Shown here one piece after another: positions 2,208-63,732 of a DNA stretch of 64,000 nucleotides. The position numbers were made by a program, and so were the translations under genes. Position 1 is the stretch's first letter; each line of letters begins with the position of its first letter. Source of the DNA: an uncultured Acidobacteriota bacterium (GTDB lineage: Bacteria; Acidobacteriota; Vicinamibacteria; Vicinamibacterales; UBA2999); assembly GCA_963735875.1 (NCBI GenBank), contig CAVTMO010000017.1, positions 548,040 through 612,039 on the forward strand, read 5' to 3'. The notes beneath the pieces were generated by a model. It saw only the letters and a list, made by a program, of their open reading frames with translations. It did no database searches and was not told the DNA's origin.

Positions 2208-3842
2208 TCAACGCGATGCGGTCTGCTGACGGGCGCGCGCCAGCGACTGCCGATCGGTCGTCGCCGCGCCGGCCTGCTCCAGCAGCTTCTTGTAGAGCGC
2301 GGCCGCCGCCGCCTTGTCGCCCGACGCCTCGGCGGCGCGACCGGCCCCGTAGAGCCCAAGGAACCGTCCCGGCTCCTTGGTCATGGTCGCCTGGAACGCC
2401 GTCTGCGCCTCCTTGGTCCGGCCGGCGTCGAGCAGCATGAAGCCGAGCAGTTCGCGGGCGGGCGCGATGGGCCCGGGCGTCACCGCCGACTTGTCGGTGA
2501 GGTCCTCGGCGTCGGCCACGGCCGACAGCAGCTCGATGCCTTTGGCCTTGTCGCCCTCGGCGTAGACCTTCCACGCCTCCACCACGCGGCGCTGGATGTC
2601 CACCTGTTCGGCCCAATACGCGTCCTTCATCTCGAGCATGCGGGCCTTGATCGCGGCCAGGCGCTCGATCTCGACCGCGGCGTCGGCCGGCTTGCCGCCG
2701 CGCGCCGCGCCGAGGCCGCGCGCGAAGTGCGTGATCGCCTCGGTGTAGGGCGCGTTCGGGGTCGGCCGCACCGTGAGTGCCGCCGCCTCGCTCCACGCCT
2801 CGCGCTCCAGCACGTAGCGCGCCGGAATGGCCGCCAGGGCGAACGCGCCGGCCCCCGCCGCGCCAGCCGCCGCCGCCGTCGACCCGACCGTGGCAATCGT
2901 CACCGCGTGGTCGCGCACGCCCTTGGCCGAGGCGTCGTCGGCCAGCTGCAGGTAGGCATAGGTCTGGTAGTCGAGAGCGTGCAGCTCCTCGCCGGCGCCG
3001 GCCGGGCCGCCGGCCTTGCGCGCCGCCTCCGCCGACTTGCGGTTGGTGTCGATCGACTCCTTCCAGTAGCCGACGCGCGTGAAGGTGTGCGACGGCATGT
3101 GGAGCGCGTGCGGCACGACCGGCGCGATCGAGGCGTAGCTGCGGGCGGCGACGAGCGCGCGCGGGGCCAGCGGCGGCGCGTCGTAGGCGTGAATGATGTA
3201 GTGCGCCACGCCGGGATGGGCCGGCATCTTCTTGAAGAGCGGCTCCAGGATCTCGGCCGCGCGCAGGTTGGCGGCGTAGGTCTTGTCTGAGGGCGTGGCG
3301 GTCTGCGCCACGGCGAGCGCCCAGAAGATGCGCGCCTCGGTGTCGCCAGGATTGTCCTTGGCGATCTGGCCCATCGTCGGCCTCGTAGGCGACGACGCGA
3401 GCGCGCTGGGTGGTGACGTCGGCGCTGGAGAACAGCCCGGCCACGGCATCGATGTAGCCCTTCTCGCGCCGCGTCGGCGTCCCGGTGGCCTGGGCCTTCT
3501 CGATCGCCGCCTTGCCGGTGGCGATTGTCTCCGGTGTGCGGAGGCCGCCGAAGGGGTTGCCCCAGTAGGTCAGCGCCACGCCCCAATGGGCCATCGCGCA
3601 GCGCAGGGTCCTTGGCGGCAATCGCCGTGAACTCCTGCCGCGCTTCGGGGAACCAGAAGGAGTGCAGCAGCGCCACCGCCCGGTTCATGTCGGTCTTGAC
3701 GCGCCGGGCTGCACGAGGTCTGGAAGTCGACCGTGCCCACCTGCTCCGCCGACAGCGCCCCCGTGCCATGGGTCTCGTGCTGCGCGAACGCCGGTGGACA
3801 CACCAGACAGGCGGCCATCATCGCGATACAGGTCTTGGTCAT
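2208..3842 (-). pseudogene. secreted TPR-like protein, three frame breaks in the 5' third
   Basis: Four co-linear pieces. Piece 1: signal peptide MTKTCIAMMAACLVCPPAFAQ...VDFQTSCSPA (from ATG 3842, GGAGGAGG 8 nt upstream). Piece 2: VKTDMNRAVALLHSFWFPEARQEFTAIAAKDPA. Piece 3: CAMAHWGVALTYWGNPFGG...RARVVAYEA. Piece 4: TMGQIAKDNPGDTEARIFWALAV... to TGA 2208. Breaks at about 3701, 3601 and 3378. Family assignment beyond TPR-like is uncertain. Confidence 0.6.
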
Positions 3843-9218: not shown

Positions 9219-10036
9219 CGACACTCGCGCTGGCTGGCGTGCGTCTGTTGACGGTCGCGCTCAACGTGCCCGGACCGGCAGCCGTCGCACGGCTCGTCGG
9301 CCTCGGCGCCACGGCCGTCAAGATCGAGCCGCCAGCGGGCGACCCGCTGGCGACGCTGTGCCCGGCGTGGTTCGAGGCGCTGCACGCCGGCGTGACGCGC
9401 GAGACGCTGGACCTCAAGACCGGCGCCGGGCGGACGGGCCTCGATGGCCGGCTGGCTGCCGCGGACGTCGTGATCACCAGCCAGCGCCCCTCGACGCTCG
9501 CGCGTCTCGGCCTCGACCCGCCGCGGGTAGCGGCCATCGCCGCAGCGCTCCGGGTGGTGCGCATCGTCGGCGACACGGCCGACCCCGAGCGCCCCGGCCA
9601 CGATGTGACCTACCAGGCGGAAGCCGGCCTGCTGGGCGATCGGCTGCCGATCACCCTGCTGGCCGATCTCGTCGGCGCCGAGCGGGTGGTGGCTGCCGTG
9701 CTCGTGGCGCTGCGGTCGGCGCCCGGCACCGTAGTGGACGTGGGCCTGCGCAACGCGCTCGACGCGTTGACCGCGCCCATCGCCCACGGCCTGACCGCGT
9801 CCGGCGGGCCTCTGGGAGGCGGCCTGGCGGCGTACGGCGTCTACGCGACGCGCGACGGCCACGTCGCCGTCGGCGCGCTGGAGCCGAGCTTTCGCGGCCG
9901 GCTCTACGCCGCGCTGGAACTGCCGCTCGACGCGCCGCTCGCCGACGCGATGGCCGCGCGCACCACCGCCGAGTGGACCGCCTTCGCCCGCGAGCACGAC
10001 CTGCCGATCAGCAAGTGCGAAGGGGCTGGGGGCTAG
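9215..10036 (+). CDS. CoA-transferase family III (CaiB/BaiF-like) protein, short form
   Basis: GTG 9215 overlaps the SulP TGA (GTGA). LAGVRLLTVALNVPGPAAVARLVGLGATAVKIEPPAGDP resembles the family III N-terminal motif. At 273 aa it is shorter than typical members. The last codons GAGG-TAG lie inside repeat arm 10022-10054. Confidence 0.55.
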   Translation: MTTLALAGVRLLTVALNVPGPAAVARLVGLGATAVKIEPPAGDPLATLCPAWFEALHAGVTRETLDLKTGAGRTGLDGRLAAADVVITSQRPSTLARLGLDPPRVAAIAAALRVVRIVGDTADPERPGHDVTYQAEAGLLGDRLPITLLADLVGAERVVAAVLVALRSAPGTVVDVGLRNALDALTAPIAHGLTASGGPLGGGLAAYGVYATRDGHVAVGALEPSFRGRLYAALELPLDAPLADAMAARTTAEWTAFAREHDLPISKCEGAGG

Positions 10037-10174
10037 GGACTGGGGGCTAGGGCCGCAACGAAAACGGGCGCGAGGCCGAAGCCCCGCGCCCGCTGTGATA
10101 ACGCAGCATGCCGACGGAACAGCCAGACGAGGAGCTTTGTAGCCCAGCCCCAGCCCCGAGCCCCTAGTCCCTAG
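10022..10174. repeat. paired G-tract / C-tract arm element A (GGGGCT/GGGACT heptads) enclosing a terminator
   Basis: Left arm ggggctgggggctagggactgggggctagggcc (10022-10054). Right arm agcccagccccagccccgagcccctagtccctag (10141-10174). The arms are imperfect reverse complements separated by an 86-nt core. Both flanking convergent genes end with TAG inside the arms. Confidence 0.8.
10065..10092 (-). terminator. intrinsic terminator candidate for the minus-strand receptor gene
   Basis: cgggcgcgaggc / gccccgcgcccg stem (11 bp, one mismatch), loop cgaa. On the minus strand it is followed by TTTT (aaaa at 10061-10064). Confidence 0.5.
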
Positions 10175-13072
10175 AAGGTGACCTTGGCCGCCAGCTGTCC
10201 GACCCTCGGCTGGTAGGCGTTCAGCAGGTTCTGTCGCGGATCCCCGAAGCCGGCGTTGTTGATCACGCTCTGGTAGGCGCCGTAGTTCTTGTGGTTGGTC
10301 AAGTTGAATACTTCGGCAATCAAGCTGATGCGCATCCCGCCCGGCAGCGGGATGTCCTTCGACAGGCGCATGTCGACACGGTGCAGCGCGTCGCCCTGCA
10401 AGGCATCGCGCGGCACGAGGTCGCCGACGGCGAACGAGGTCGGCCCGTCGAACCGATCCTGCACGCCGGCCGGCACCGTCACCGGCGCGGTTACGAAGCG
10501 ATTGGTGCCCACGGCGCCGAACGGCGCCGCACTGAAGGTGGTGGCGTAGTAGTTGCCCGAGCCGAAGAAGTAGGCGCCGGCGATGTTGACGTCCCAGGGC
10601 AGGTGCCAGAGGGCGTTCATGCGCAGCGTGTGCCGCTGGAAGTCGGTCGAGCGCGCCCACTCGGCATCCGGGTCGAAGGGGTTGGTGCCCTCGAACTGGA
10701 AGTTGGTGGTGTTGTCGTTCATGTAGAGCATGTAGGTGTAGGTCAGCCCGGCCTGCCAGTTGTCGGCGTAACGCTTGGTGACCCCGCTCGAGATCGCGGC
10801 GTAGTCGGCCTCGCCGGTGGATTCGAGCCACTGGATCTTGCCGAACTTCGGGTCGGGGCGGCCGGCGGACGGATTCAGGTTGTAGCCCGTCAACGGATTG
10901 AAGAACAGGTTCGGATCACGCTGCCGGGCGAAGTTCTCGCCCTTCCAGTGGGTGAGATCGGCCTCGACGCCCAAGCGGGCGCCGAACTGGGTCTGGAAGC
11001 CGATCGTGCTCTGCCAGGTGTAGGGCATCTTGTAGTCGCTGGCGATGGCGCGAGGCGACTGGGCCGGCAGCGGCGCCCGGCCCGCCAGGATGTCGTCGGC
11101 GGTGACACCGCGGGTCGGGTCCTGGATGAAGCCGGGCCGGCCGTCGTTGGGGAACGAGTTGACCAGAATCCGCTCGCCGTTGAACGACTGGTGGCTGAAG
11201 GTCGTGTTCGAGTCGGGGATGCTGAAATAGAGCCCGCTGCCCCCGCGTATGACCGTGGTGCCCTGGCCGCCGATGTTCCAGGTGAAGCCGCCGCGCGGGG
11301 CGATGTTGTTGATGTCGCGCAGGTCGCCGGGGTAGAGCATCTCGCCGGAGCTCAGGGCGGTGTTCTCGGTGTAGCCGGCGCGGGGGTTGAAGGTCACCTC
11401 GGTGGTGATGTGCGGCGGGTCGAGGGCGCCCCAGTCGGCGTCCCAGCGCACGCCGCCGTTGATGGTGAACGAGTTGTTGATCTTCCAGGTGTCGCCCACC
11501 CACAGCGCCAGCGTCGGCCGCGGGATGTCGATGGTCCAGTCGCCGAAGTTCTGATCGAAGCGGGTCGCGATCGAGTCGAGGCCGGTCACGTCCCAGCGAG
11601 TGGGATCGTTCCAGGCGTCCACCGGGAAGCGGCGGAGGACGTCGGCCGGCGTGGCAGAAAAGATGAATTCGCCGCGCGACAGCAGCTCCCACGAGCCGGT
11701 GTCGTGCCAGCGCAGGAACTCGGCGCCGAACTTGAGGTCGTGCGCGCCACGGTTGGTGGTCAGGTCGTAGCGCAGGCTCCAGGTGTTCTGGTAGAACTCC
11801 TGCGGGTAGTTGCGGCGCTGGCCCACCGTGAGGCTGGGGAACACGTAGTTAGGGGTGTTGGCCAGGGCCGACACCGCCAGCTGGTTCTTCCAGTCGAAGT
11901 GGCTGTAGCCCAGCCGCACTTCCTGGATGGTCTTGTCGCTCAGCACGTTGGCCCAGGTGTTCGACACGTTGAACGCCTTGCGCGATCGATCGGCCACCTG
12001 CGACGGATGCTCGGTGCCTGACACCTGGGTGAACGGGTTACCCCAGTCCCAGTAAGAGACGCGCGAGGTGATGTGATCGCCCTGACGCACCTGCCAGTCA
12101 GCGCGGCCGAGGAAGCTGTTCTGCACCAGCTTGGTCGGGAACGACCACGTGGCGGTCGGCCCCAGCGCCGCCGACGCGGCGAGGATCGTGTTGGGCTCGT
12201 TCTCGCGCTCGTAGGACAGGAAGTAGTGGAGCTTGTCGCGGACGATCGGCCCCCCGATGGCGGCCCCCCACTGCTGGTTGGAGTACGGCAGCACGCGGTT
12301 GGCGATGAAGTCCTGCTCGTTGAGCTTGTCGTCGCGGAAGTAGCCGTAGACGCTGCCCGCCATGTCGTTGGTGCCCGAGCGCGAAATGGCCTGCACCTGG
12401 ATGCCGAGCGAGCGGCCCTGGGTGATGTCGAAGAGGTTGGTCACCACCTGGAACTCGGCGATCGCCTCACGGCTGAACCGGGGCTGGCCGAAGCCGCCGC
12501 CGGCCACCTGCTGGGTGATCTCCTGGCCGTCGAGATTGAGCTGGAAGGCGCGATCGCGCACGCCCGGGATTGGTGTCGACGGCGTTGGCGGTGATGCCCT
12601 TCACCTGCATGGCCAGCTCCATCCAGTTGCGGCCCTGCAGCGGCAGCTCCTCCATCTGGCGGCGGTCGACGTTGCCGGCCACCTGCGTCGAGCTGATGTC
12701 GACCAGTGGCGATTCGCCGGTGACGGTGAGCGTCTCGCTCAAACTGGCCACCTGCATCGCGAACGGCACCGAGCGGTTCTGGCCGACCAGCAGTTCCACT
12801 TCTGGCACGATCACGGTGGCGAAGCCCGAGAGCTCGGCCTGCACCTTGTAGCGGCCCGCCGGCACACCGCGCAGGCGATAGTCGCCGCGCTCGTCGCTGA
12901 CGCTGGTGAACACCCGGCCGGTCTCGAGCGACGTCGCGGTGACGGTGACGCCCGGCAGCGCGCCGCTCGTCGAATCGGCAATCGTGCCGAAGATGGATGC
13001 CTCCTGCGCGAACGCCGAGGCTGCGAACAGCACGATGGCGGCAGCAAAGACACCGATGGAACGCACGCGCAT
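10171..13072 (-). pseudogene. TonB-dependent receptor-like outer-membrane protein with N-terminal carboxypeptidase-regulatory-like domain, one frame break at about 12562
   Basis: ATG 13072. Signal peptide MRVRSIGVFAAAIVLFAASAFAQ, then GTIADSTSGALPGVTVTATSLETGRVF..DERGDYRLRGVPAGRYKV (CarboxypepD_reg). ...ANAVDTNPG continues as VRDRAFQLNLDGQEI... (ORF 10171..12561). C-terminal aromatic end ...AAKVTF. Confidence 0.8.
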
Positions 13073-23794: not shown

Positions 23795-23827
23795 CCCCGT
23801 TCCCTGTTCCCCGTTCCCTGTTCCCTA
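23795..23827 (-). repeat. G-tract array (GGGAACA/GGGGAAC units) filling the thiolase-hbd intercistronic gap
   Basis: Minus strand reads TAGGGAACAGGGAACGGGGAACAGGGAACGGGG. That is five G3-4 runs with 3-4 nt loops, a tandem 14-mer GGAACAGGGAACGG x2. It begins in the TAG stop of the thiolase and ends 8 nt before the hbd ATG. Confidence 0.8.
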
Positions 23828-26097: not shown

Positions 26098-26133
26098 CCT
26101 TCCCGGTCCCCGGTCGCCGGTCCCCGGTCCCCG
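26098..26133 (-). repeat. G-tract array (GGGGACC heptads) in the thiolase / TtuC-like intercistronic gap
   Basis: Minus strand reads CGGGGACCGGGGACCGGCGACCGGGGACCGGGAAGG. It lies between TGA 26155 and the GTG/ATG start at 26093/26090. Confidence 0.8.
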
Positions 26134-36646: not shown

Positions 36647-37228
36647 TCACAGCGATCCCCGCAGGCCGAGATCGTCGGCCCGCTCGCGCATGAAGCCGAT
36701 GACGTTGGTGACGTGGACGTCCAGCGGCAGACCCATCAGCTCGGCGCCGCGGCGCAGGTGCTCGCGGGGAACGGCGCGCGCAAAAGCCTTGTCCTTCATG
36801 CGCTTGATGACCGACGACGCTTCCAGGTCGAGGACGCTGCGGCTGGGCCGCACCAGTGCCGCCGCGGTCACGAAGCCCGCCAGCTCGTCGCAGGCGACCA
36901 GCGCGCGTTCGACCGGCGCCTCGGGCTGCACGCCGGTGATTTCCCACGCGTGTGACTGAATCGCCCGCATCACCCACTCCGGGTAGCCCAGCGAGCGCAG
37001 GTGCTCGCAGCCCTTGTTGGGGTGATCGCCGAGCGTGGGATAGCGCTCGTAATCGAAGTCGTGAAGCAGCGCGACCACGCCCCACTCCTCCTCGCTGGCG
37101 CTGGCGAGCCTGGCATATCCGCGCACGGCGGCTTCGACGGCAAGCGCGTGCTTGCGCAGGCTGTCGCTCGCCGTCCACTCGGTGAGCAGCGTCCAAGCGG
37201 CGCCACGGTCCAGGGTCATGCCGCTCAT
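36647..37228 (-). CDS. HD domain metal-dependent phosphohydrolase
   Basis: LRKHALAVEAAVRGYA...VVALLHDFDYE... HD motif, 193 aa. Confidence 0.75.
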   Translation of the reverse strand: MSGMTLDRGAAWTLLTEWTASDSLRKHALAVEAAVRGYARLASASEEEWGVVALLHDFDYERYPTLGDHPNKGCEHLRSLGYPEWVMRAIQSHAWEITGVQPEAPVERALVACDELAGFVTAAALVRPSRSVLDLEASSVIKRMKDKAFARAVPREHLRRGAELMGLPLDVHVTNVIGFMRERADDLGLRGSL

Positions 37229-37709: not shown

Positions 37710-38774
37710 TCAGCCCAGGGCCAGCGAGGGCACGGCGTTGGTGCCGGCGCCGGCGAGCAGCCCGGCGTCGAGGAGCCGCGCCCCCGACGCCGCGATCATC
37801 GCGGCGTTGTCGGTGGCCAGCGCGATCGGCGGGACGAACACCGCGAGTCCGCGCTCCCGGCCACGGGCCTCCAGATCGCGCCGCAACCGGCTGTTGGCCG
37901 ACACGCCCCCGGCCACGCCAATCGACCGCGCGTCGTGCTCACGCGCGGCCTCGAACGTGCGTGCCACAAGCGTGCTCACCACGGTCCGCTGGAAGCTCGC
38001 GCACAGGTTGGCGATCTCACCGGCCGGCAGCCGTTCGACGCCGAGCGCCGCCTGACGGGCCCGGACATGGCGCAACACCGCGGTCTTCACGCCGCTGAAG
38101 CTGAAGTCCAGGCGGCCGTCGCGGTCGGGCGCGTTGCGATCGCGGTGCGTGAGGCGGGTGGCCGGCAGATCGACGGCGCCGTCGTCACCGTCGGCGGCCA
38201 GGCGATCGATCACCGGGCCGCCTGGATAGCCCAGGCCGACCAGCTTGGCCACCTTGTCGTAGGCTTCGCCGGCGGCGTCGTCGCGGGTGCGGCCGAGCAG
38301 CCGATAGGTGCCGGCCTCGGGCACCAGGTAGAGGCTCGTGTGGCCGCCCGACACCACGAGCACGACCGCTGGCAGCGGCAGCGGACCGTGGGCGAGCCAC
38401 AACGACTCGATGTGGCCCGCCAGGTGATTGACGGCCACCAGCGGCAGGCCATGCGCCCACGCTGCGGCCTTGGCGAAGGCGACGCCCACCAGCAGCGACC
38501 CGACCAGCCCCGGCCCCTGGGTGACCGCCACCGCATCGAGCCCGCGCCATGAGACGCCGGCTTCCTCGAGCGCGCGTTCGACGACTCCGCAGATGTCGCG
38601 GACGTGCTGCCGCGACGCCAGTTCGGGCACGACGCCGCCCCACTCGCGATGGATCGCGACCTGCGAGGCGACGATGTTCGAGCGAATGGCCCACCGCGCG
38701 CCGGGATCCGGGTCGCGGCCGATGACCGCGGCTGCTGTTTCGTCGCACGACGTCTCGATGCCGAGGAGGATCAC
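37710..38774 (-). CDS. tsaD: tRNA N6-adenosine threonylcarbamoyltransferase
   Basis: GTG 38774 overlaps the mtn[20 protein letters not shown]...[14 protein letters not shown]...VNHLAGHI...VSGGHT...[16 protein letters not shown]... pattern. Confidence 0.9.
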
Positions 38775-39808
38775 GCCAGCCGGGCCAGTCCGCCGGCGAA
38801 CGGCGGGTGCACGACGCCCCGATCGGTGACGATGGCGGTCACGTACCGGTGGGGCGTGACGTCGAAGGCGGGGTTGCAGACGGCCGCACCCTCCGGCACC
38901 AGCTGCAAGGATCCGAGGTGGGTGACTTCCACCGCCTTCCGCTCTTCGATCGGGATCCCCTCGCCCGTGGGCGTGGCCAGGTCGACGGTGGACCAGGGTG
39001 CCGCGACATAGAACGGAATGCCGTGCGCGTGGGCCAGAACCGCCACGCCGTAGGTGCCGATCTTGTTCGCGGTGTCGCCATTGGCGGCGATCCGATCGGC
39101 GCCGACGACCACGGCGTTGACCCGGCCGGCGCGCATCATCGCCGCCGACATGCTGTCGGTGATGACGGTCGTGGCGATGCCGTCCTTGACGAGCTCCCAG
39201 GCCGTCAGCCGGGAGCCCTGCAGGAAAGGCCGCGTCTCGTCGGCGAGGACGGTGACCGACTTCCCCGCCTCGACGGCACTGCGGATCACCCCGAGCGCGG
39301 TGCCGTAACCGGCGGTGGCCAGGGCGCCGGCGTTGCAATGCGTGAGCACCCGCGCGTCGTCGGGCAGCAGCGCGGCGCCGAACCGGCCGATCGCCCGGCA
39401 GCTGGCGACGTCCTCGTCGTGGATGCGATCGGCCTCCCGGCCGAGCCGTGCGGTCAGCTCGGAGACGCTCTCCCCGGCCTGGGCCCCGGCGGCGAAGGCC
39501 TGCTTCATCCGCTCGATCGCCCAGAAGAGATTGACCGCCGTCGGCCGGGTGGCGGCCAGGACGTCGGCGAGGCGCTGGAACTCGGTGACGAACTGCCGGG
39601 TGCCCGTGGCCTTGCTGCGCCGCGCGCCCAGGGCCAGCCCCATCGCCGCCGCCACGCCGATTGCCGGCGCGCCGCGGATCACCATCGCCGTGATGGCCTT
39701 GGCCACGTCGAGCCCCGACCGGCAGCGTACGTAGACCTCGCGCCCGGGCAGCTTGCGCTGATCGATCATGACGATGTCGTCGCCGTCCCAGGCGATCGTG
39801 GGGAGCAT
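38771..39808 (-). CDS. mtnA: S-methyl-5-thioribose-1-phosphate isomerase
   Basis: [16 protein letters not shown]...[18 protein letters not shown]...[11 protein letters not shown]...HCNAGALAT...[20 protein letters not shown]...[18 protein letters not shown]. Confidence 0.9.
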
Positions 39809-39818
39809 GGGTCACATT

Positions 39819-39972
39819 CTAGGGGCTGGGGGCTGGGGACTAGGGCTTGCCAATATCCCGCTTCGCATCGCGGCATTCGCGGCGATGCACAAGCCCTGGC
39901 TCTTGATCACGTCACTCGACAGCTTGACGGCCGCATGCCCCAGTCCCCAGCCCCTAGCCCCCAGTCCCCAGG
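39819..39972. repeat. paired G-tract / C-tract arm element B between cdd and mtnA
   Basis: Left arm ctaggggctgggggctggggactagggc (39819-39846). Right arm gccccagtccccagcccctagcccccagtccccagg (39937-39972). 90-nt unrelated core contains a gcatcgc...gcgatgc hairpin. The cdd C-terminus ILGTGG-TAG is encoded by the right arm. The left arm ends 10 nt from the mtnA ATG. Confidence 0.8.
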
Positions 39973-40358
39973 ATCGTTTTGTCGAAGGGCATCGGCAACA
40001 AGTCGGCAAGGCGGACGCGGCCGGATTCCCGTTCGAGGTTGGCGAGGACGATCTCGATGTCGCCGCAGTATTCCCAGAGCAGCTGGCGGCACGCCCCGCA
40101 CGGCGGGGTCGGGCGCGCGGTATCGGCGACGACGGCCAGCCGGACAAACGAGGTGCGACCCTCCGACAACGCCTTCCACAGCGCGACGCGCTCGGCACAG
40201 ACGGTGAGGCCATACGTGGCGTTCTCGATGTTGCAGCCGGTGACGACGGTGCCGTCGGCGCATTCGAGCGCCGCGCCCACGCCGAAGCCGGAGTAGGCCG
40301 CCTGCGCATGGGTCCGCGCAGTGCGGGCAGCCGCGACCAGCGTCTCAAAGCCGCTCAA
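39954..40358 (-). CDS. cdd: cytidine deaminase
   Basis: YSGFGVGAAL...CAERVAL...PCGACRQ zinc-binding motifs, 134 aa. Confidence 0.9.
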   Translation of the reverse strand: MSGFETLVAAARTARTHAQAAYSGFGVGAALECADGTVVTGCNIENATYGLTVCAERVALWKALSEGRTSFVRLAVVADTARPTPPCGACRQLLWEYCGDIEIVLANLERESGRVRLADLLPMPFDKTILGTGG

Positions 40359-54590: not shown

Positions 54591-57384
54591 ATGTTCAGAC
54601 TGTCTACGCTCTGCCTGACGGCCGCGCTCACGGCCGCCCTGGCCATGCCGGCGTTCGCGCAGCCGGCGCAGACCGGCACCATTGCCGGCGTCGTGCAGGA
54701 CGCCAGCGGCGGCGTGCTGCCCGGCGTCACCGTGACCATCACCAGCCAGGAACGCGGCTTCGTCCGCTCGGCCATCTCCGACGAGCAGGGCCGTTTCGTC
54801 TTCGGCGCGGTCTCGATCGGCAACTACACGGTGGAGGCGACGCTCGCGGGCTTCGCCCCCATGCGCCTCACCGACAACCTGGTCGAGACCGAGAAGACCA
54901 CGACCGTGTCAATTCCCATGCGCGTGGGCGGGCTCACCGACACCGTCACGGTCACCGGTGAGACGCCAATCGTCGACCTGACCAACGTGACGGCCAACAC
55001 CCGCCTCCGCCGGGAAGAGTTCGAGCGCCTGCCGGTCGGCCGGAGCTATCAGGCCCTGGTCGAGGCGTCGCCCGGGGTCGTCGGCGGGACGGCCTTGACC
55101 GGCAACTCCAACGTCAACGCCCTCGGCGCCCCGAACAACGCCAACCTCTACGTCATGGATTCGGTCGACACGACCGATCCGACCACCGGCACGTTCGGCG
55201 CCAACCTCAACTTCGAGGCGATCCAGGAAGTGTCGGTCTCGACCTCGGCGGTGTCGGTCGAGTACGGCCGCGGCCAGGGGGCGATCATCAACGTCATCAC
55301 CAAGTCGGGCACCAACCGGTTCGAGGGCTCGGCCAAGTACATCGCCATCAACGACCAGTGGGACGAGCAGAACTCGACCGAGAGCGAGACCACCGGTCTG
55401 TCGCTGGCGCGCGTGAAGTTCGACAAGGTCAACCCGGCCTACAGCTTCACCCTGGGCGGGCCGATCTGGCGCGACCGTGCCTGGTTCTTCGGCGCCTACG
55501 AGTACGCGACCAACACCACCCCGCAGCGCCAGACCCCGGGACCGATTCCCGAGGACTACCAGCAGTCCACCGAGAACAACTTCATGAACGTCCGCGGCAC
55601 GCTGCAGATCGCCGAAGGCCACCAGGCCTGGGTGAAGTACTTCCGCTCGCCCACCGACGGCTTCATCATCGACTACTGGGGCGCGACCACGCCGGCCGGC
55701 GAGCTCGAGGCGCTGACCGCGCAGAACCAGTCGAGCGACTCGTGGGCGGCGCAGTGGACCGGCGTCTTCCGCGGCAATCTGGCGGTGGAGGCGGCGTTCG
55801 GCACCTACTCCTCGCTCATCGACGTGACCACCTACGAGGCGGGACGCATCGGCTCGAACGCGCCGGTGCAGGCGCAAGCCGACAACCGTTTCTACAACGG
55901 CGCGAGCTTCGACGGCTACGTCAATCGTCCCCGCCAGCAGTTCAACGTCGCCGGCACGTACTTCTTCAACATGGGCTCGCGCAGCCACAACGTCAAGGCC
56001 GGCTTCGACTACCAGACCGTGGATTCGGGGTCGCTCTTCAACTACCCCACCAGCCAGTATTTCGTGGCCGAGTCGTTCAACCAGGCGGCCGGCACGTTCG
56101 TGCCGCTCTTCCGCCGCGACTACGAGTCGGGGCCTTCGACCTCGAAGGGCAAGAACTACGCGTTCTACCTGCGCGACAAGTTCGACCTGACCAGCCGGCT
56201 CTTCGTCGAGGCCGGCGTCCGGTTCGAGCACCAGACCGGGACCAGCGACCTGGGCGCCGACACGGTCGACACCACCGAGCTGGCGCCGCGAATCGCCGCC
56301 AGCTGGGACGTGTCGGGCGACGGCAAGAGCCTCATCACCGGCAGCTTCGGCCGCTTCTACACCGGCATCATCCAGAGCTTCTCCGACGGCTTCGCCGGCG
56401 TGCCGCAGCAGCAGAACTACGACAACTTCGCCTGGAACGGCTCGAGCTACGTCTTCCAGAACAGCGTCCGGGTCGGCGGCTCCACGTTCCAGCCGAATCC
56501 CGAGCTCGACCCGTCGTACCTCGACGAGTGGACCATCGGCGCGCAGCGGCAGTTCGGCCGCAGCATGGCCGCGAGTGTCCGCTACATCGCCCGTGAATGG
56601 AACGACCTCATCGACGACATCCGCACCATCAACCCGGACCTGTCGGTCAACCGGGTCGTCGACAACTACGACGCCGCCGAGCGGCAGTACCGCGGCGTCC
56701 AGGGCACCTTCGAGAAGCGGTTCGCGAGCAACTGGAACCTGGGCAGCCAGCTACACCTACTCCAAGACCGAGGGCAACCACTTCGACGCCACGTTCACGC
56801 CGCTGGGTGACTACATCGACGCCCAGTGCCGCACCACCCTCGACGCGACCATCGGCACGGCCGGCGTGATCTCGTGCAACGAGGTCCAGAACGGCGCCAA
56901 CAAGTACGGCCGGCCGATCTACGACCGGCCGCACAACTTCAAGCTGAACGGCGCCTACGTGCGGCCGATCGGTCCGTTCAACCTGGCGGTCGGCGCGCTG
57001 GTCGAATCGGTGTCCAAGCGCCGCTACGAGAAGGTGCGCACGGTCAACGTGCTCACTCCCGGGGCGCTGACCAACTTCGGGCCGACGGCGACCTACTTCT
57101 ACAACGAGCGCGGCGAAGACGCGCTCGAAGGGATGCAGTGGTACATCGACAACTCGATCGAGTTCATCTGGCGGGCTCCGGGCAGCACCCAGATCGGGAT
57201 GAAGGGCGAGGTCTTCAACCTGACCAACCGCGAGGAGAAGATCATCTCGAACAACACCGCGTTCTGCGGCGCGACCGCCAACCAGGCGTGCACCGACGCG
57301 GTGAACAACTACGGCAAGGCCACGGCGCGCGGCTCGTTCCAGACGCCGCGGCAGTTCCGGATCTCGGCCATCTTCCGCTTCTAG
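54591..57384 (+). pseudogene. TonB-dependent receptor-like outer-membrane protein with carboxypeptidase-regulatory-like domain, one frame break at about 56745
   Basis: Signal peptide MFRLSTLCLTAALTAALAMPAFAQ. GTIAGVVQDASGGVLPGVTVTITSQERGF...GRFVFGAVSIGNYTV. ...FEKRFASNWNLG continues as ASYTYSKTEGNHF... (ORF 56575..57384), ending QFRISAIFRF-TAG. Confidence 0.8.
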
Positions 57385-57522
57385 GGGCTGGGGACTGGGG
57401 GCTGGGGACTAGGGCTCGTCACGAGCTGCCGGTCTCTACGCGACCCGAACGTACAAAGGGCCGGGCGAATCGCCCGGCCCTTTGTGTTCGTGACCCGCCC
57501 CAGTCACCCAGCCCCTAGCCCC
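57382..57522. repeat. paired G-tract / C-tract arm element C enclosing a bidirectional terminator
   Basis: Left arm taggggctggggactgggggctggggactagggc (57382-57415), which starts with the TAG stop of the receptor gene. Right arm gccccagtcacccagcccctagcccc (57497-57522). 81-nt unrelated core. Confidence 0.8.
57455..57483. terminator. bidirectional rho-independent terminator between convergent receptor and rng genes
   Basis: aaa-gggccgggcg-aat-cgcccggccc-ttt. Perfect 10-bp stem flanked by an A-run and a T-run. Confidence 0.7.
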
Positions 57523-57598
57523 GCAGTTCGACGTGATGTCGACACGCGCTTGAGGCCGCGCAGCGGCTTACCCCCCAATTGACATCACGTCGAACTGC
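57523..57598 (-). other. 18-bp perfect inverted repeat spanning the rng stop codon region
   Basis: gcagttcgacgtgatgtc (57523-57540) is the exact reverse complement of gacatcacgtcgaactgc (57581-57598). The latter encodes the last residues ...EQFDVM of rng. 40-nt loop contains the TAA stop. Confidence 0.85.
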
Positions 57599-63705: not shown

Positions 63706-63732
63706 GGGACCGGGGACCGGGGACCGGGGGCC
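63706..63732 (+). repeat. G-tract array (GGGGACC heptads) in the mreB-mreC gap, on the strand opposite to transcription
   Basis: GGGACC GGGGACC GGGGACC GGGGGCC on the plus strand, 5 nt from the mreB TGA (63737). Same heptad as 26098-26133 but inverted relative to the genes. Confidence 0.8.

Follow-up and report, generated by a model that had tools for sequence, protein, structure and literature searches.

The 64,000-nt stretch of Vicinamibacterales DNA analysed here (the window) contains, between the genes cdd and mtnA, an inverted pair of 7-base tandem repeats that forms, immediately past the cdd stop codon, a long GC hairpin. This element is one example of the G-rich heptameric intergenic repeat class known from Xanthomonas and Nostoc, a class which is itself known but functionally unexplained. 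As for what it does at this junction, we put at roughly 0.55 the probability that the pair acts as a 3'-end or boundary hairpin of the upstream operon, placed next to a leaderless promoter that belongs to mtnA alone. We propose that the two arms would pair in RNA from the nucleoside-salvage genes deoA-punA-cdd, giving a GC stem of ~30 bp that follows the cdd stop immediately; as a hairpin for pausing, termination or processing, this stem would mark and protect the 3' end of the upstream unit and insulate the downstream one, while mtnA-tsaD would bind ribosomes independently of any read-through RNA by virtue of their own -10 box (TAGAAT) and, most likely, a leaderless mRNA. The arrays themselves were probably born by replication slippage in steps of 7 nt, their complementarity probably being maintained by selection for pairing, by template switching between the arms, or by both.

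Read along the minus strand, the element has the order described by an earlier, sequence-only reading of this DNA, namely a G-rich arm, a core with a small hairpin, and a C-rich arm that stops 10 nt short of mtnA. The G-rich arm (39938..39971) consists of five tandem heptamers, which run from 39971 to 39938 as CTGGGGA, CTGGGGG, CTAGGGG, CTGGGGA and a final CTGGGG. The core between the arms is locus-specific and 91 nt long (39847..39937), and its hairpin (gcatcgccgc/gcggcgatgc, 39865..39888) is also present in the relatives L082 and L083. The C-rich arm (39819..39846) is made of the units gccctag, tccccag, cccccag and cccctag (gccctagtccccagcccccagcccctag) and is complementary to the G-rich arm over 32 nt, at 88%; from its end at 39819, only aatgtgaccc separates it from the mtnA ATG (39808-39806). 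Period-7 arrays were returned when TRF was run on the window, in which the motif CTGGGGNCTRGGG matches 16 times, at three loci, against 0.87 expected, and 0 of 100 shuffles reached 16. Rfam gave no match for the whole window at gathering thresholds and, for the element region at E <= 1, generic long-hairpin matches only, all far below threshold. A second assembly of the same organism (L001, 99.5% identical overall) shows zero differences across the region 39662-40001, an identity that is uninformative on repeat instability, and scanning metagenomes with the -10 box and the mtnA start as anchors yielded two extra variants only, too few for copy-number polymorphism. The cdd|mtnA stem has no U-tract after it (the sequence 3' of the C-rich arm is agaaugugaccc), and a consensus scan, which demands such a tract, found no intrinsic terminator there; both points count against the boundary hairpin.

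The first arm is at the same time coding sequence. The product of cdd (cytidine deaminase, 134 aa; 39954..40358, minus strand) matches its NCBIfam equivalog, but the family profile stops at about residue 129, leaving the last ~5 residues outside it and read from the repeat: the 3' end of the ORF, atc ctg ggg act ggg ggc TAG, lies within the run of five heptamers, the G-rich arm coding for the tail L-G-T-G-G as well as for the stop (TAG, 39954-39956). Among orthologues, the shared sequence ends at ...PFDRSLL, and beyond this point come variable tails of 0-18 residues (among them GTGG, GSGG, GAGD, GTGDSGTGDQGSGTG, GARDPGPGARE) that resemble translated repeat units. The idea that arms supply gene ends therefore stands on the variability of the cdd C-termini, and on the window itself, in which four genes (cdd, a CoA-transferase gene and two outer-membrane receptor genes) take their stop codon from the TAG in the CTAG of an arm. 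For annotation, it follows that C-terminal tails that are short and Gly-rich, and likewise TAG stops, can be repeat-derived in such genomes.

Two further inverted pairs lie in the window, both described here by plus-strand coordinates. In copy A, a family III CoA-transferase gene takes its TAG (10034-10036) from the G-rich arm (10022..10052), and its tail ...CEGAGG is indeed read from the arm as had been claimed; a convergent gene for an outer-membrane beta-barrel receptor, with V-T-F as its last residues, takes its minus-strand stop (10171-10173) from the C-rich arm (10142..10174). In copy C, a receptor-like gene whose product ends in F-R-F has its TAG (57382-57384) where the G-rich arm (57381..57415) begins, and the C-rich arm (57497..57523) lies ~45 nt from the stop (57568) of a convergent RNase E/G gene; the core of copy C holds a perfect hairpin, aaagggccgggcg-aat-cgcccggcccttt, then gtgtt (57455..57488), which by inspection looks like a bidirectional intrinsic terminator nested between the arms. 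Single heptamer arrays also occur, all on the minus strand and given here by their unit on the mRNA strand: (GGGAACR)n at 23795..23826, in a co-directional gap reaching from a stop codon to the next start; (GGGGACC)n at 26102..26133, in a co-directional spacer; and (CCCCGGT)n at 63706..63729, immediately 3' of a stop codon. The second of these has the very unit that makes up the two arms between cdd and mtnA in L084.

Could copies A, B (cdd|mtnA) and C be insertions of one MITE, with heptamer repeats for terminal inverted repeats? All three are two-armed, their arms are similar, and sites share units (<=1 mismatch) in 16.7% of comparisons within a genome as against 3.6% between genomes. However, arm length and unit order are unlike between the copies, single arms exist (the arrays just listed, and L086), and the element is ancestral at cdd|mtnA, where its units have turned over in place. 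Moreover, the three cores are unrelated, matching only by a chance 7 nt, the 91-nt core at cdd|mtnA being homologous only to the same-junction cores of close relatives (L082 and, in part, L083), and no target-site duplications are visible at the arm ends of the three copies. On the last two grounds we reject the MITE, to which we attach almost no probability. Of the view that the same element was inserted repeatedly, what survives is that the arms are one repeat family; with three unrelated cores, they do not make one mobile element.

What, then, of the gene downstream? mtnA (S-methyl-5-thioribose-1-phosphate isomerase; 38771..39808, minus strand, ATG 39806-39808), with tsaD next to it, matches its NCBIfam equivalog. 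Its residue 4 aligns with profile position 2 and an in-frame TGA lies two codons 5' of the ATG, so that the start call is sound. The Shine-Dalgarno sequence is missing as had been noticed, there being no GGAGG-like site 5' of the ATG. What does lie there is TAGAAT (39816..39821, minus strand), the putative -10 box of a leaderless mtnA promoter, which starts at -13, ends 7 nt upstream of the ATG, and takes its TAG from the end of the C-rich arm's last CTAG. Leaderless genes have been defined by a TANNNT box that begins ~12 bp upstream of the start codon, without a Shine-Dalgarno sequence (Zheng et al. 2011, PMC3160421), and this is the configuration found at mtnA, with TAGAAT from -13 and no Shine-Dalgarno site.

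This box is not peculiar to loci with a repeat. In 49 of the 71 orthologous loci, the distance from the end of TANNNT to the mtnA ATG is 6-9 nt, irrespective of spacer content, and the offsets peak sharply at 6 nt (24, 10, 9 and 6 loci at 6, 7, 8 and 9 nt, with at most 2 at any other offset); in non-mtnA genes, likewise, offset 5 has 0 TANNNT and offset 6 already has 12. The commonest mtnA boxes are TAGAAT, TACAAT and TATCAT, and CTAGAAT is invariant across the subclade at cdd|mtnA. Loci with a spacer of 4-9 nt have the box too, located there within the final codons of cdd. A -35-like hexamer is not visible 5' of TAGAAT, and a consensus sigma-70 promoter scan, which demands a -35 box and is blind to leaderless promoters with a -10 box only, found no promoter at the element. 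Judging from the box and its spacing, mtnA seems to be transcribed from a promoter of its own into a leaderless mRNA. Such an mRNA would explain the absent Shine-Dalgarno and, as it would start at the AUG, would include neither arm; its first 10 nt are predicted to be unpaired. This arrangement does not hold everywhere, since 22 of the 71 loci have no TANNNT at 6-9 nt before the mtnA ATG and, in some of these (L088, L094, L038 and L020), an arm abuts the ATG. A difference of 30% vs 4% that seemed to tie paired arrays in general to leaderless starts disappears once the mtnA junction is removed (1/15). For Vicinamibacterales at large, an absent Shine-Dalgarno can signal a leaderless gene.

The sequence-only reading had put these parts together differently: in a cdd-mtnA RNA, the initiation region of mtnA would be hidden by the arm duplex and released when the G-rich arm folds into a quadruplex, in a way that depends on K+, on a helicase or on a protein. 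That arm does contain five G4 tracts with loops of 2-3 nt, and related repeats give G-quadruplexes in vitro (PMC4692102). When quadruplex energies are switched on, a quadruplex is predicted both for the G-rich arm alone (-35.1 vs -11.9 kcal/mol) and for the nascent RNA (-76.2 vs -49.6 kcal/mol), and in read-through RNA the helix is predicted to gain ~12 bp into mtnA codons 2-6, with the AUG in a 14-nt internal loop. The full element, however, folds at -111.9 kcal/mol, compared with -80.5 +/- 4.7 for shuffles (z = -6.6). With quadruplex energies on, it still folds as the hairpin at -111.9, whereas holding the G-rich arm single-stranded leaves a remainder of only -47.8; the hairpin is preferred by a predicted >30 kcal/mol. 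The start codon lies outside the arm duplex, there is no Shine-Dalgarno site to sequester, and the conserved -10 box at leaderless spacing already accounts for its absence. Furthermore, L086 carries the C-rich array alone, and orthologous elements have units without G-tracts, which means that quadruplex potential is not a conserved property of the junction. On these grounds the element is probably not a switch on mtnA translation, and we consider the quadruplex version of such a switch very unlikely.

Indeed, relatives provide a natural experiment, in which the unit at one junction has been replaced many times. L082, L083 and L085 keep CTGGGGN arms; in L084, both arms have changed to GGGGACC/GGTCCCC; other genomes have arms of CAGATCT, ACCAGCT, AACGGAG, ACGGTCC and further units without G-tracts, and in genomes at a greater distance the inverted arrays consist of unrelated units. 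Alignment of the junction thus shows arms that stay complementary while their unit sequence turns over among relatives. RNAalifold keeps the arm helix in 5/5 sequences with some double changes, on an alignment made ambiguous by the repetitive arms, and 19 of the 34 long spacers fold at z below -3. Across these replacements, the array after the stop, its inverted partner, the core hairpin, the complementarity of the arms and the downstream -10 box all persist, which argues that pairing and position matter, or that they reflect the mechanism that generates the arrays, rather than G-quadruplex chemistry. In many relatives, the cdd-mtnA spacer is just 4-9 nt long and has no hairpin, so the hairpin is dispensable for the pathway.

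Such variability also lends itself to the main rival of the boundary hairpin, in which the arrays are a neutral or selfish by-product with no function at all. Polymerase slippage by 7 nt, a hypothesis for heptamers that is cited in PMC4692102, would fill dispensable intergenic bases and halt at constrained codons and promoter boxes, and the arms would be kept alike through intramolecular template switching (quasipalindrome correction) or gene conversion. Unit, copy number, and presence or absence do vary freely at orthologous junctions, down to the many spacers of 4-9 nt and the single-armed L086; the arrays extend exactly to essential features (the Phe-stop that ends outer-membrane proteins, and the -10 box), and they have lengthened a cdd tail that is dispensable. 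On the other hand, the architecture of one junction has been kept despite the turnover of its unit, and in Xanthomonas the repeats are 83% positionally conserved, within unusually stable regions (PMC4692102). The distribution of arrays described below adds two further objections, and we regard the absence of any function as possible but not likely.

To see the junction in its wider context, we took a census of intergenic arrays of at least 3 copies in 85 sequences, amounting to 1.40 Mb of Vicinamibacterales DNA. It contained 119 arrays of period 7, as against 10, 37 and 19 of periods 6, 8 and 9. An inverted partner (>=13/14 matches) lay within 500 nt of 44 of 124 arrays and a direct partner of only 4, a bias that a neutral by-product does not readily accommodate; the same is true of the shortage of arrays between divergent genes, where gaps hold 23% of the intergenic length and 10 of 117 arrays (101 are co-directional, 6 convergent). 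Array edges overlap a stop codon or come within <10 nt of one in 49 of 113 cases, and a G3/C3 run occurs at 32 of 94 array sites in the clade. These counts show heptamer arrays to be the dominant intergenic tandem repeat in the clade, often in inverted pairs and usually beginning no more than a few bases from a stop codon.

In co-directional pairs, the median distance is 4 nt from the stop to the beginning of the first arm and 12.5 nt from the end of the second arm to the following start, a geometry that could speak for translational coupling. Ribosomes terminating on cdd would enter the G-rich arm by 15 nt, melt the stem and expose the mtnA start, which lies across the base of the helix, for re-initiation, and the extruded hairpin would mimic the 4-9 nt spacer of other species, whose own geometry is that of coupled genes. 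The cdd stop inside the first arm and the short distance from the second arm to the AUG agree with this, as do Shine-Dalgarno-type sites, found at 0 of 15 genes downstream of paired arrays and at 58 of 441 in array-free gaps, albeit for start codons that are crude calls in this census. Yet the second arm is >30 nt from the next start in 8 of the 24 co-directional pairs, the convergent copies A and C are beyond the reach of the model, and the -10 box points to a separate mtnA transcript. Coupling seems to us quite improbable.

Alternatively, the stem may be a processing site, at which RNase III would cut the near-perfect duplex of ~30 bp and thereby detach the upstream cistron from the downstream one. 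A similar bracket elsewhere holds a small four-helix-bundle gene, as do the intervening sequences (IVS) of 23S rRNA: each of the 7 PF05635 genes sampled is flanked by inverted heptamer arrays, and 6 of them sit in the cdd|mtnA spacer, in both orientations. In Coxiella, the IVS is a selfish element with an ORF of the PF05635 family, excised by RNase III (PMC4990558). The likeness extends to the inverted repeats, the long stem and a core able to encode a four-helix-bundle protein, and this layout is present in the cdd|mtnA spacer of relatives. The window element, in contrast, has no ORF and lies in an mRNA spacer, not in rRNA; none of the window cores holds a PF05635 ORF or a recognisable remnant of one, and the association comes from close homologues of one protein and may reflect shared ancestry at one locus. 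An RNase III site is, in our judgement, unlikely. In a wider form of the idea, which we think distinctly doubtful, inverted heptamer arrays would be the stems of an IVS-like module of mRNA spacers, able to carry a PF05635 (Avd-like) gene, and the window pair would be a cargo-free case. The stem of such a module could be processed, for example by RNase III, and its cargo could flip by recombination between the arms; the four-helix-bundle protein, which binds nucleic acids, might even help to create or maintain the arrays. If true, this would join bacterial heptamer repeats, rRNA intervening sequences and a large orphan family of four-helix-bundle proteins. A literature search for four-helix-bundle or IVS proteins linked to heptamer repeats found nothing.

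How does the cdd|mtnA element, read as a boundary hairpin, compare with other repeats? In enterobacteria, REP/BIME palindromic units occur in many copies as intergenic hairpins, mostly on the 3' side of genes or in the spacers of co-transcribed ones, and are credited with stabilising the mRNA upstream of them and damping read-through. Unlike REPs, which share a conserved sequence and move by means of RAYT transposases, our element is a tandem heptamer array whose unit sequence is free and not conserved across the clade. The cyanobacterial STRR heptamers, such as STRR1 (CCCCAGT), reportedly described by Mazel et al. in 1990, are intergenic tandem heptamers as well, and we take the C-rich arm unit CCCCAGT to be identical to the STRR1 consensus. 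STRRs are known mainly as single arrays used for strain fingerprinting, and their definition includes neither inverted pairs nor a stop-codon rule. The TAACTGA heptamer repeats of Beggiatoaceae, Cyanobacteria and Bacteroidetes (MacGregor 2015, PMC4679880) resemble our element as intergenic tandem heptamers placed a few nucleotides before start codons, where canonical ribosome-binding sites are often absent, but they have a single, specific AT-rich unit and are nearly always direct, with one indirect case in 170 sets (PMC4679880).

Rehm et al. (2015, PLoS One, PMC4692102) described heptamer repeats of the units GGGAATC in Xanthomonas and GGGGA(C/T)T in Nostoc/Anabaena, with 70-75 convergent inverted pairs in each Xanthomonas genome. 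On the coding strand these repeats overlap stop codons, and on the non-coding strand they are found up to 50 bp upstream of ORFs; they are under-represented between divergent genes, and are conserved in position but variable in length; no function was assigned to them despite RNA-seq (PMC4692102). The arrays studied here share the tandem 7-nt units with a G3-4 tract, GGGGACT being literally a Nostoc unit, as well as the usual number of units, ~4-5 per array: where the class has at least two and typically four, there are five CTGGGGN at 39938-39971 and four units in the complementary arm. Placement follows the same pattern, the cdd TAG lying within the G-rich arm and the G-rich strand of the other arm being antisense, with its end 10 nt from mtnA. 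Inverted pairing is found both in the 88% complementary arms of this element and among the paired arrays of the census, and convergent inverted pairs are frequent in both settings; dispersal through non-coding DNA is evident from the 119 intergenic period-7 arrays in 1.4 Mb, and here, too, there are fewer arrays between divergent genes, and position is kept among relatives while length and sequence vary.

There are differences, too. The host belongs to a 70%-GC lineage of Acidobacteriota (Vicinamibacterales); the heptamer units of the clade are many and unrelated, and most lack G-tracts (at 62 of 94 sites); the unit has been replaced in both arms together at one orthologous junction; and the distal arm is fused to the -10 box of a probable leaderless gene. 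A literature search for heptamer repeats in Acidobacteria found nothing. Intergenic heptamer repeats were first described in cyanobacteria, and the 2015 study dealt with Xanthomonas and Nostoc; to these two groups, the cdd|mtnA locus adds a third, unrelated phylum.

At the cdd|mtnA junction (copy B of the window's three two-armed repeat loci) everything is read from the minus strand, and the repeat starts inside a gene. The cdd frame (39954-40358) closes with atc ctg ggg act ggg ggc TAG, and these terminal codons lie within a G-rich arm of five heptamers (39971->39938; CTGGGGA CTGGGGG CTAGGGG CTGGGGA CTGGGG). A core of 91 nt with a small hairpin (39865-39888) leads to the C-rich arm (39846->39819; gccctag tccccag cccccag cccctag), 3' of which aatgtgaccc precedes the mtnA ATG (39808-39806). 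The arms are 88% complementary over 32 nt, and the RNA has a predicted folding energy of -111.9 kcal/mol (z = -6.6 relative to dinucleotide-shuffled sequences). NCBIfam models match cdd, mtnA, the upstream purine-nucleoside phosphorylase and the downstream tsaD; mtnA aligns from its residue 4, at profile position 2, and a longer mtnA ORF is excluded because an in-frame TGA stands two codons upstream of the ATG. On window sequence, folding, family matches and the upstream TGA, every factual statement that the sequence-only reading made about this copy was correct.

The motif CTGGGGNCTRGGG occurs 16 times in the window, against 0.87 expected, at three loci that share the layout of G-rich arm, core and C-rich arm, each folding far better than shuffles. 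Copy A (10022-10174) is flanked by convergent CoA-transferase and outer-membrane receptor genes, and copy C (57381-57523) by a receptor-like gene and RNase E/G. These had been taken for the same element: the three loci do carry one repeat family, but the cores of A, B and C showed no relationship when compared (best cross-match, 7 nt), so they are not one element. A MITE ranks among our lesser alternatives for such loci. Single heptamer arrays lie in co-directional spacers at 23795 (GGGAACR), 26102 (GGGGACC) and 63706 (CCCCGGT), and four TAG stops in the window are supplied by an arm's CTAG. The core of copy C contains a perfect 13-bp GC hairpin (57455-57488) with an A-tract 5' and a T-rich tail 3', which looks like an ordinary bidirectional intrinsic terminator nested in heptamer arms between convergent genes. 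The neighbouring TonB-dependent-receptor-like gene (54591-57384) is in two pieces, ORFs 54591-56810 and 56575/56866-57384, owing to a frameshift, pseudogenization or an error of assembly. The C-rich arms of copies A and B also have CCCCTAGAAkGTGACC in common at their outer ends (10161-10176; 39809-39824), perhaps by chance; it encodes the C-terminus V-T-F-stop of the convergent receptor gene in A and forms the mtnA -10 region in B.

Has the repeat, as had been proposed, created the end of cdd? The exact window protein is found on a contig from a soil metagenome, and its homologues, assigned to Vicinamibacterales/Acidobacteriota, support this: conserved sequence ends at ...PFDRSLL, beyond which the tails of the orthologues vary over 0-18 residues (GTGG, GSGG, GAGD, GTGDSGTGDQGSGTG, GARDPGPGARE and others) and read like translated repeats. 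Across eighty loci from reference genomes the order cdd->mtnA is conserved with a spacer of 4 nt to ~700 nt, and the long spacers very frequently hold inverted tandem-heptamer arrays or other hairpins, 19 of 34 folding with z below -3. The heptamer unit varies between genomes (ACCAGCT, CAGATCT, ACGGTCC, AACGGAG, CTGGCAG, GTAGTCC and so on). Among closer relatives retrieved by exact-protein look-up, three (L082, L083, L085) have a CTGGGGN-type element as in the window, and in a fourth (L084) both arms have changed jointly to GGGGACC/GGTCCCC; RNAalifold retains the arm helix across the whole set of five sequences, with a few double changes. Two metagenome variants carry, respectively, a C-rich arm without a partner (L086) and a collapsed remnant through which cdd reads (L087). 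This comparison therefore indicates that the structure is old at this junction, that its sequence turns over, and that the arms evolve in concert and are separable. Other spacers are built differently, with four tandem copies of a ~47-nt unit, one hairpin each (cagccctaaagggctg; L004:10397-10585), or repeated REP-like hairpins (ggggccgccttcaggcggcccg; L078:9606-9722). Another assembly of this organism (L001) is 99.5% identical to window positions 29953-50355, differing by 79 mismatches and 16 gaps in 20 kb. In L001, indels of one base disrupt mtnA (window 39287) and merge the thymidine phosphorylase frame with that of PNP (window 41238); of the two versions, that of the window appears to be intact.

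What the junction conserves beside the arms is a box. A TANNNT hexamer ends 6-9 nt upstream of the mtnA start codon at 49 of 71 orthologous loci (24, 10, 9 and 6 at the four offsets, at most 2 at any other), most often as TAGAAT (20), TACAAT (10) or TATCAT (9), and regardless of spacer content. Where the spacer is 4-9 nt, the box falls within the terminal cdd codons (ctg cTA GAA Taa), and the residues encoded across it vary as the DNA pattern stays constant. CTAGAAT does not vary within the window's subclade, and its TAG closes the last arm unit. A TANNNT box beginning ~12 bp ahead of the start codon has been published as the signature of leaderless genes (PMC3160421), and we infer such a promoter for mtnA. 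Upstream of TAGAAT there is no recognisable -35, and a consensus promoter scan likewise gave no match there. Ahead of 1136 called non-mtnA starts, TANNNT is absent at offset 5, rises abruptly to 12 occurrences at offset 6 and remains elevated through 13. SD-like motifs are most frequent at offsets 6-8, and these genomes thus seem to use both modes of initiation. A 190-aa gene without a Pfam match (36647-37219, minus strand) is a candidate second leaderless gene of the mtnA cluster, with TAGGAT-N6-7-ATG kept in three genomes (also L002:12982 and L084:13454). Behind the -10 box, 4-5 nt ahead of the real mtnA ATG, lies a two-codon start-stop, ATG TGA (39809-39817); it recurs in 8 of 9 subclade sequences (ATG TAG or ATG TAA in relatives), not clearly beyond chance.

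We consider it somewhat better than an even bet (about 0.55) that copy B combines a boundary hairpin behind cdd with a separate leaderless promoter for mtnA-tsaD. In read-through RNA the arms would pair as a long stem immediately 3' of the cdd stop, serving as the 3'-end or boundary hairpin of the upstream operon and perhaps affecting stability or read-through, and mtnA-tsaD would be transcribed from its own promoter abutting the distal arm. Transcription from that promoter would yield a leaderless RNA whose first 10 nt are predicted to be unpaired. Direct observation covers the anatomy, the enrichment, the positional rules, the joint change of the arms and the conserved -10 box; the transcription start, 3'-end formation and any influence on stability or read-through are inferred. 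Processing of the arm stem by RNase III is a lesser alternative.

The sequence-only reading had instead proposed a possible switch over the mtnA start, opened by a G-quadruplex in the upstream arm. With quadruplex energies on, a quadruplex is predicted for the G-rich arm alone (-35.1 vs -11.9 kcal/mol) and for nascent RNA lacking the C-arm (-76.2 vs -49.6 kcal/mol). The full element, however, adopts the hairpin (-111.9) with the option on or off, and keeping the G-rich arm single-stranded leaves only -47.8 kcal/mol for the remainder; the quadruplex could therefore persist only kinetically. The conserved -10 box, the single-armed L086, the many orthologous arms without G-tracts and the presence of a G3/C3 run in only 32 of 94 array sites across the clade also weigh against the switch, which we rank as a lesser possibility. 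One part of the model does hold for read-through RNA, where the helix gains ~12 bp, cdd codons pairing with mtnA codons 2-6, and TAGAAT...AUG comes to lie in an internal loop; the switch itself is not supported. Translational coupling, with ribosomes unmasking the mtnA start, is likewise a lesser rival.

A census of 85 sequences (TRF, 1.40 Mb; genes called by a position-specific GC model whose stops are exact and whose starts are approximate) places copy B among many such arrays. Intergenic arrays of at least 3 copies number 119 at period 7, and 10, 37 and 19 at periods 6, 8 and 9. An inverted partner within 500 nt (at least 13 of 14 matches) accompanies 44 of 124 non-coding heptamer arrays, a direct one 4 of 124. 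Co-directional, convergent and divergent contexts hold 101, 6 and 10 arrays, the last being 10/117 against the 23% of intergenic length in divergent gaps. Of 113 array edges, 49 lie less than 10 nt from a stop codon or overlap it; in co-directional pairs the medians are 4 nt from stop to first arm and 12.5 nt from second arm to next start. Units are shared (at most 1 mismatch) at 16.7% within genomes and 3.6% between them. The main rival, which we hold to be rather unlikely, is neutral slippage: template switching would maintain the palindrome, and the product would be tolerated because neither a leaderless mtnA nor a dispensable cdd tail would be sensitive to it. On crude start calls, the distal arm frequently abuts a called start codon, and an SD-type site precedes 0/15 genes behind paired arrays (mtnA excluded; e.g. 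L014:8594-8677, L075:7598-7720, L056:3705-3794, L054:17563-17689) vs 58/441 behind array-free gaps.

In some relatives the core is itself a gene. At L038:10389-10958 and L030:10386-11055 it encodes a PF05635 four-helix-bundle protein ("23S rRNA IVS protein", Avd-like), and with five further homologues on long contigs (L088:1441-1898, L094:1446-1909, L090:1430-1957, L096:1384-2061, L097:1372-2023) inverted heptamer arrays, for example (CAGTAGG)n...(CCTACTG)n, bracket 7/7 genes examined. Six of the seven occupy the cdd|mtnA spacer, and their orientations (three co-oriented, three inverted) suggest that they flip between the arms; the seventh has an unrelated neighbourhood. In L088 the spacer gene sits between (AGTAGGC)n arrays, and an empty inverted pair, AGGCAGT ... 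CTGCCGA, occupies mtnA|tsaD (2935-3016), so this unit family is reused within one genome. The layout is like that of rRNA intervening sequences, of which the Coxiella 23S rRNA example is a selfish element with a PF05635-family ORF, excised by RNase III (PMC4990558). Our literature search found no publication connecting this family with heptamer repeats, and the association is a lead rather than a result, because the sample is small and biased to close homologues.

Heptamer repeats as such are familiar. MacGregor 2015 described TAACTGA heptamers adjoining start codons (PMC4679880), and Rehm et al. 2015 described repeats of Xanthomonas (GGGAATC) and of Nostoc (GGGGA(C/T)T), depleted between divergent ORFs, conserved in position and variable in length, forming G4 in vitro and left without an assigned function (PMC4692102). 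Copy B shows every sequence-level feature of the latter class, GGGGACT being one of the Nostoc units; the window element is this known class, now in a new phylum. New from our comparison is that the orthologous site conserves architecture and arm complementarity, not unit sequence or G-richness.
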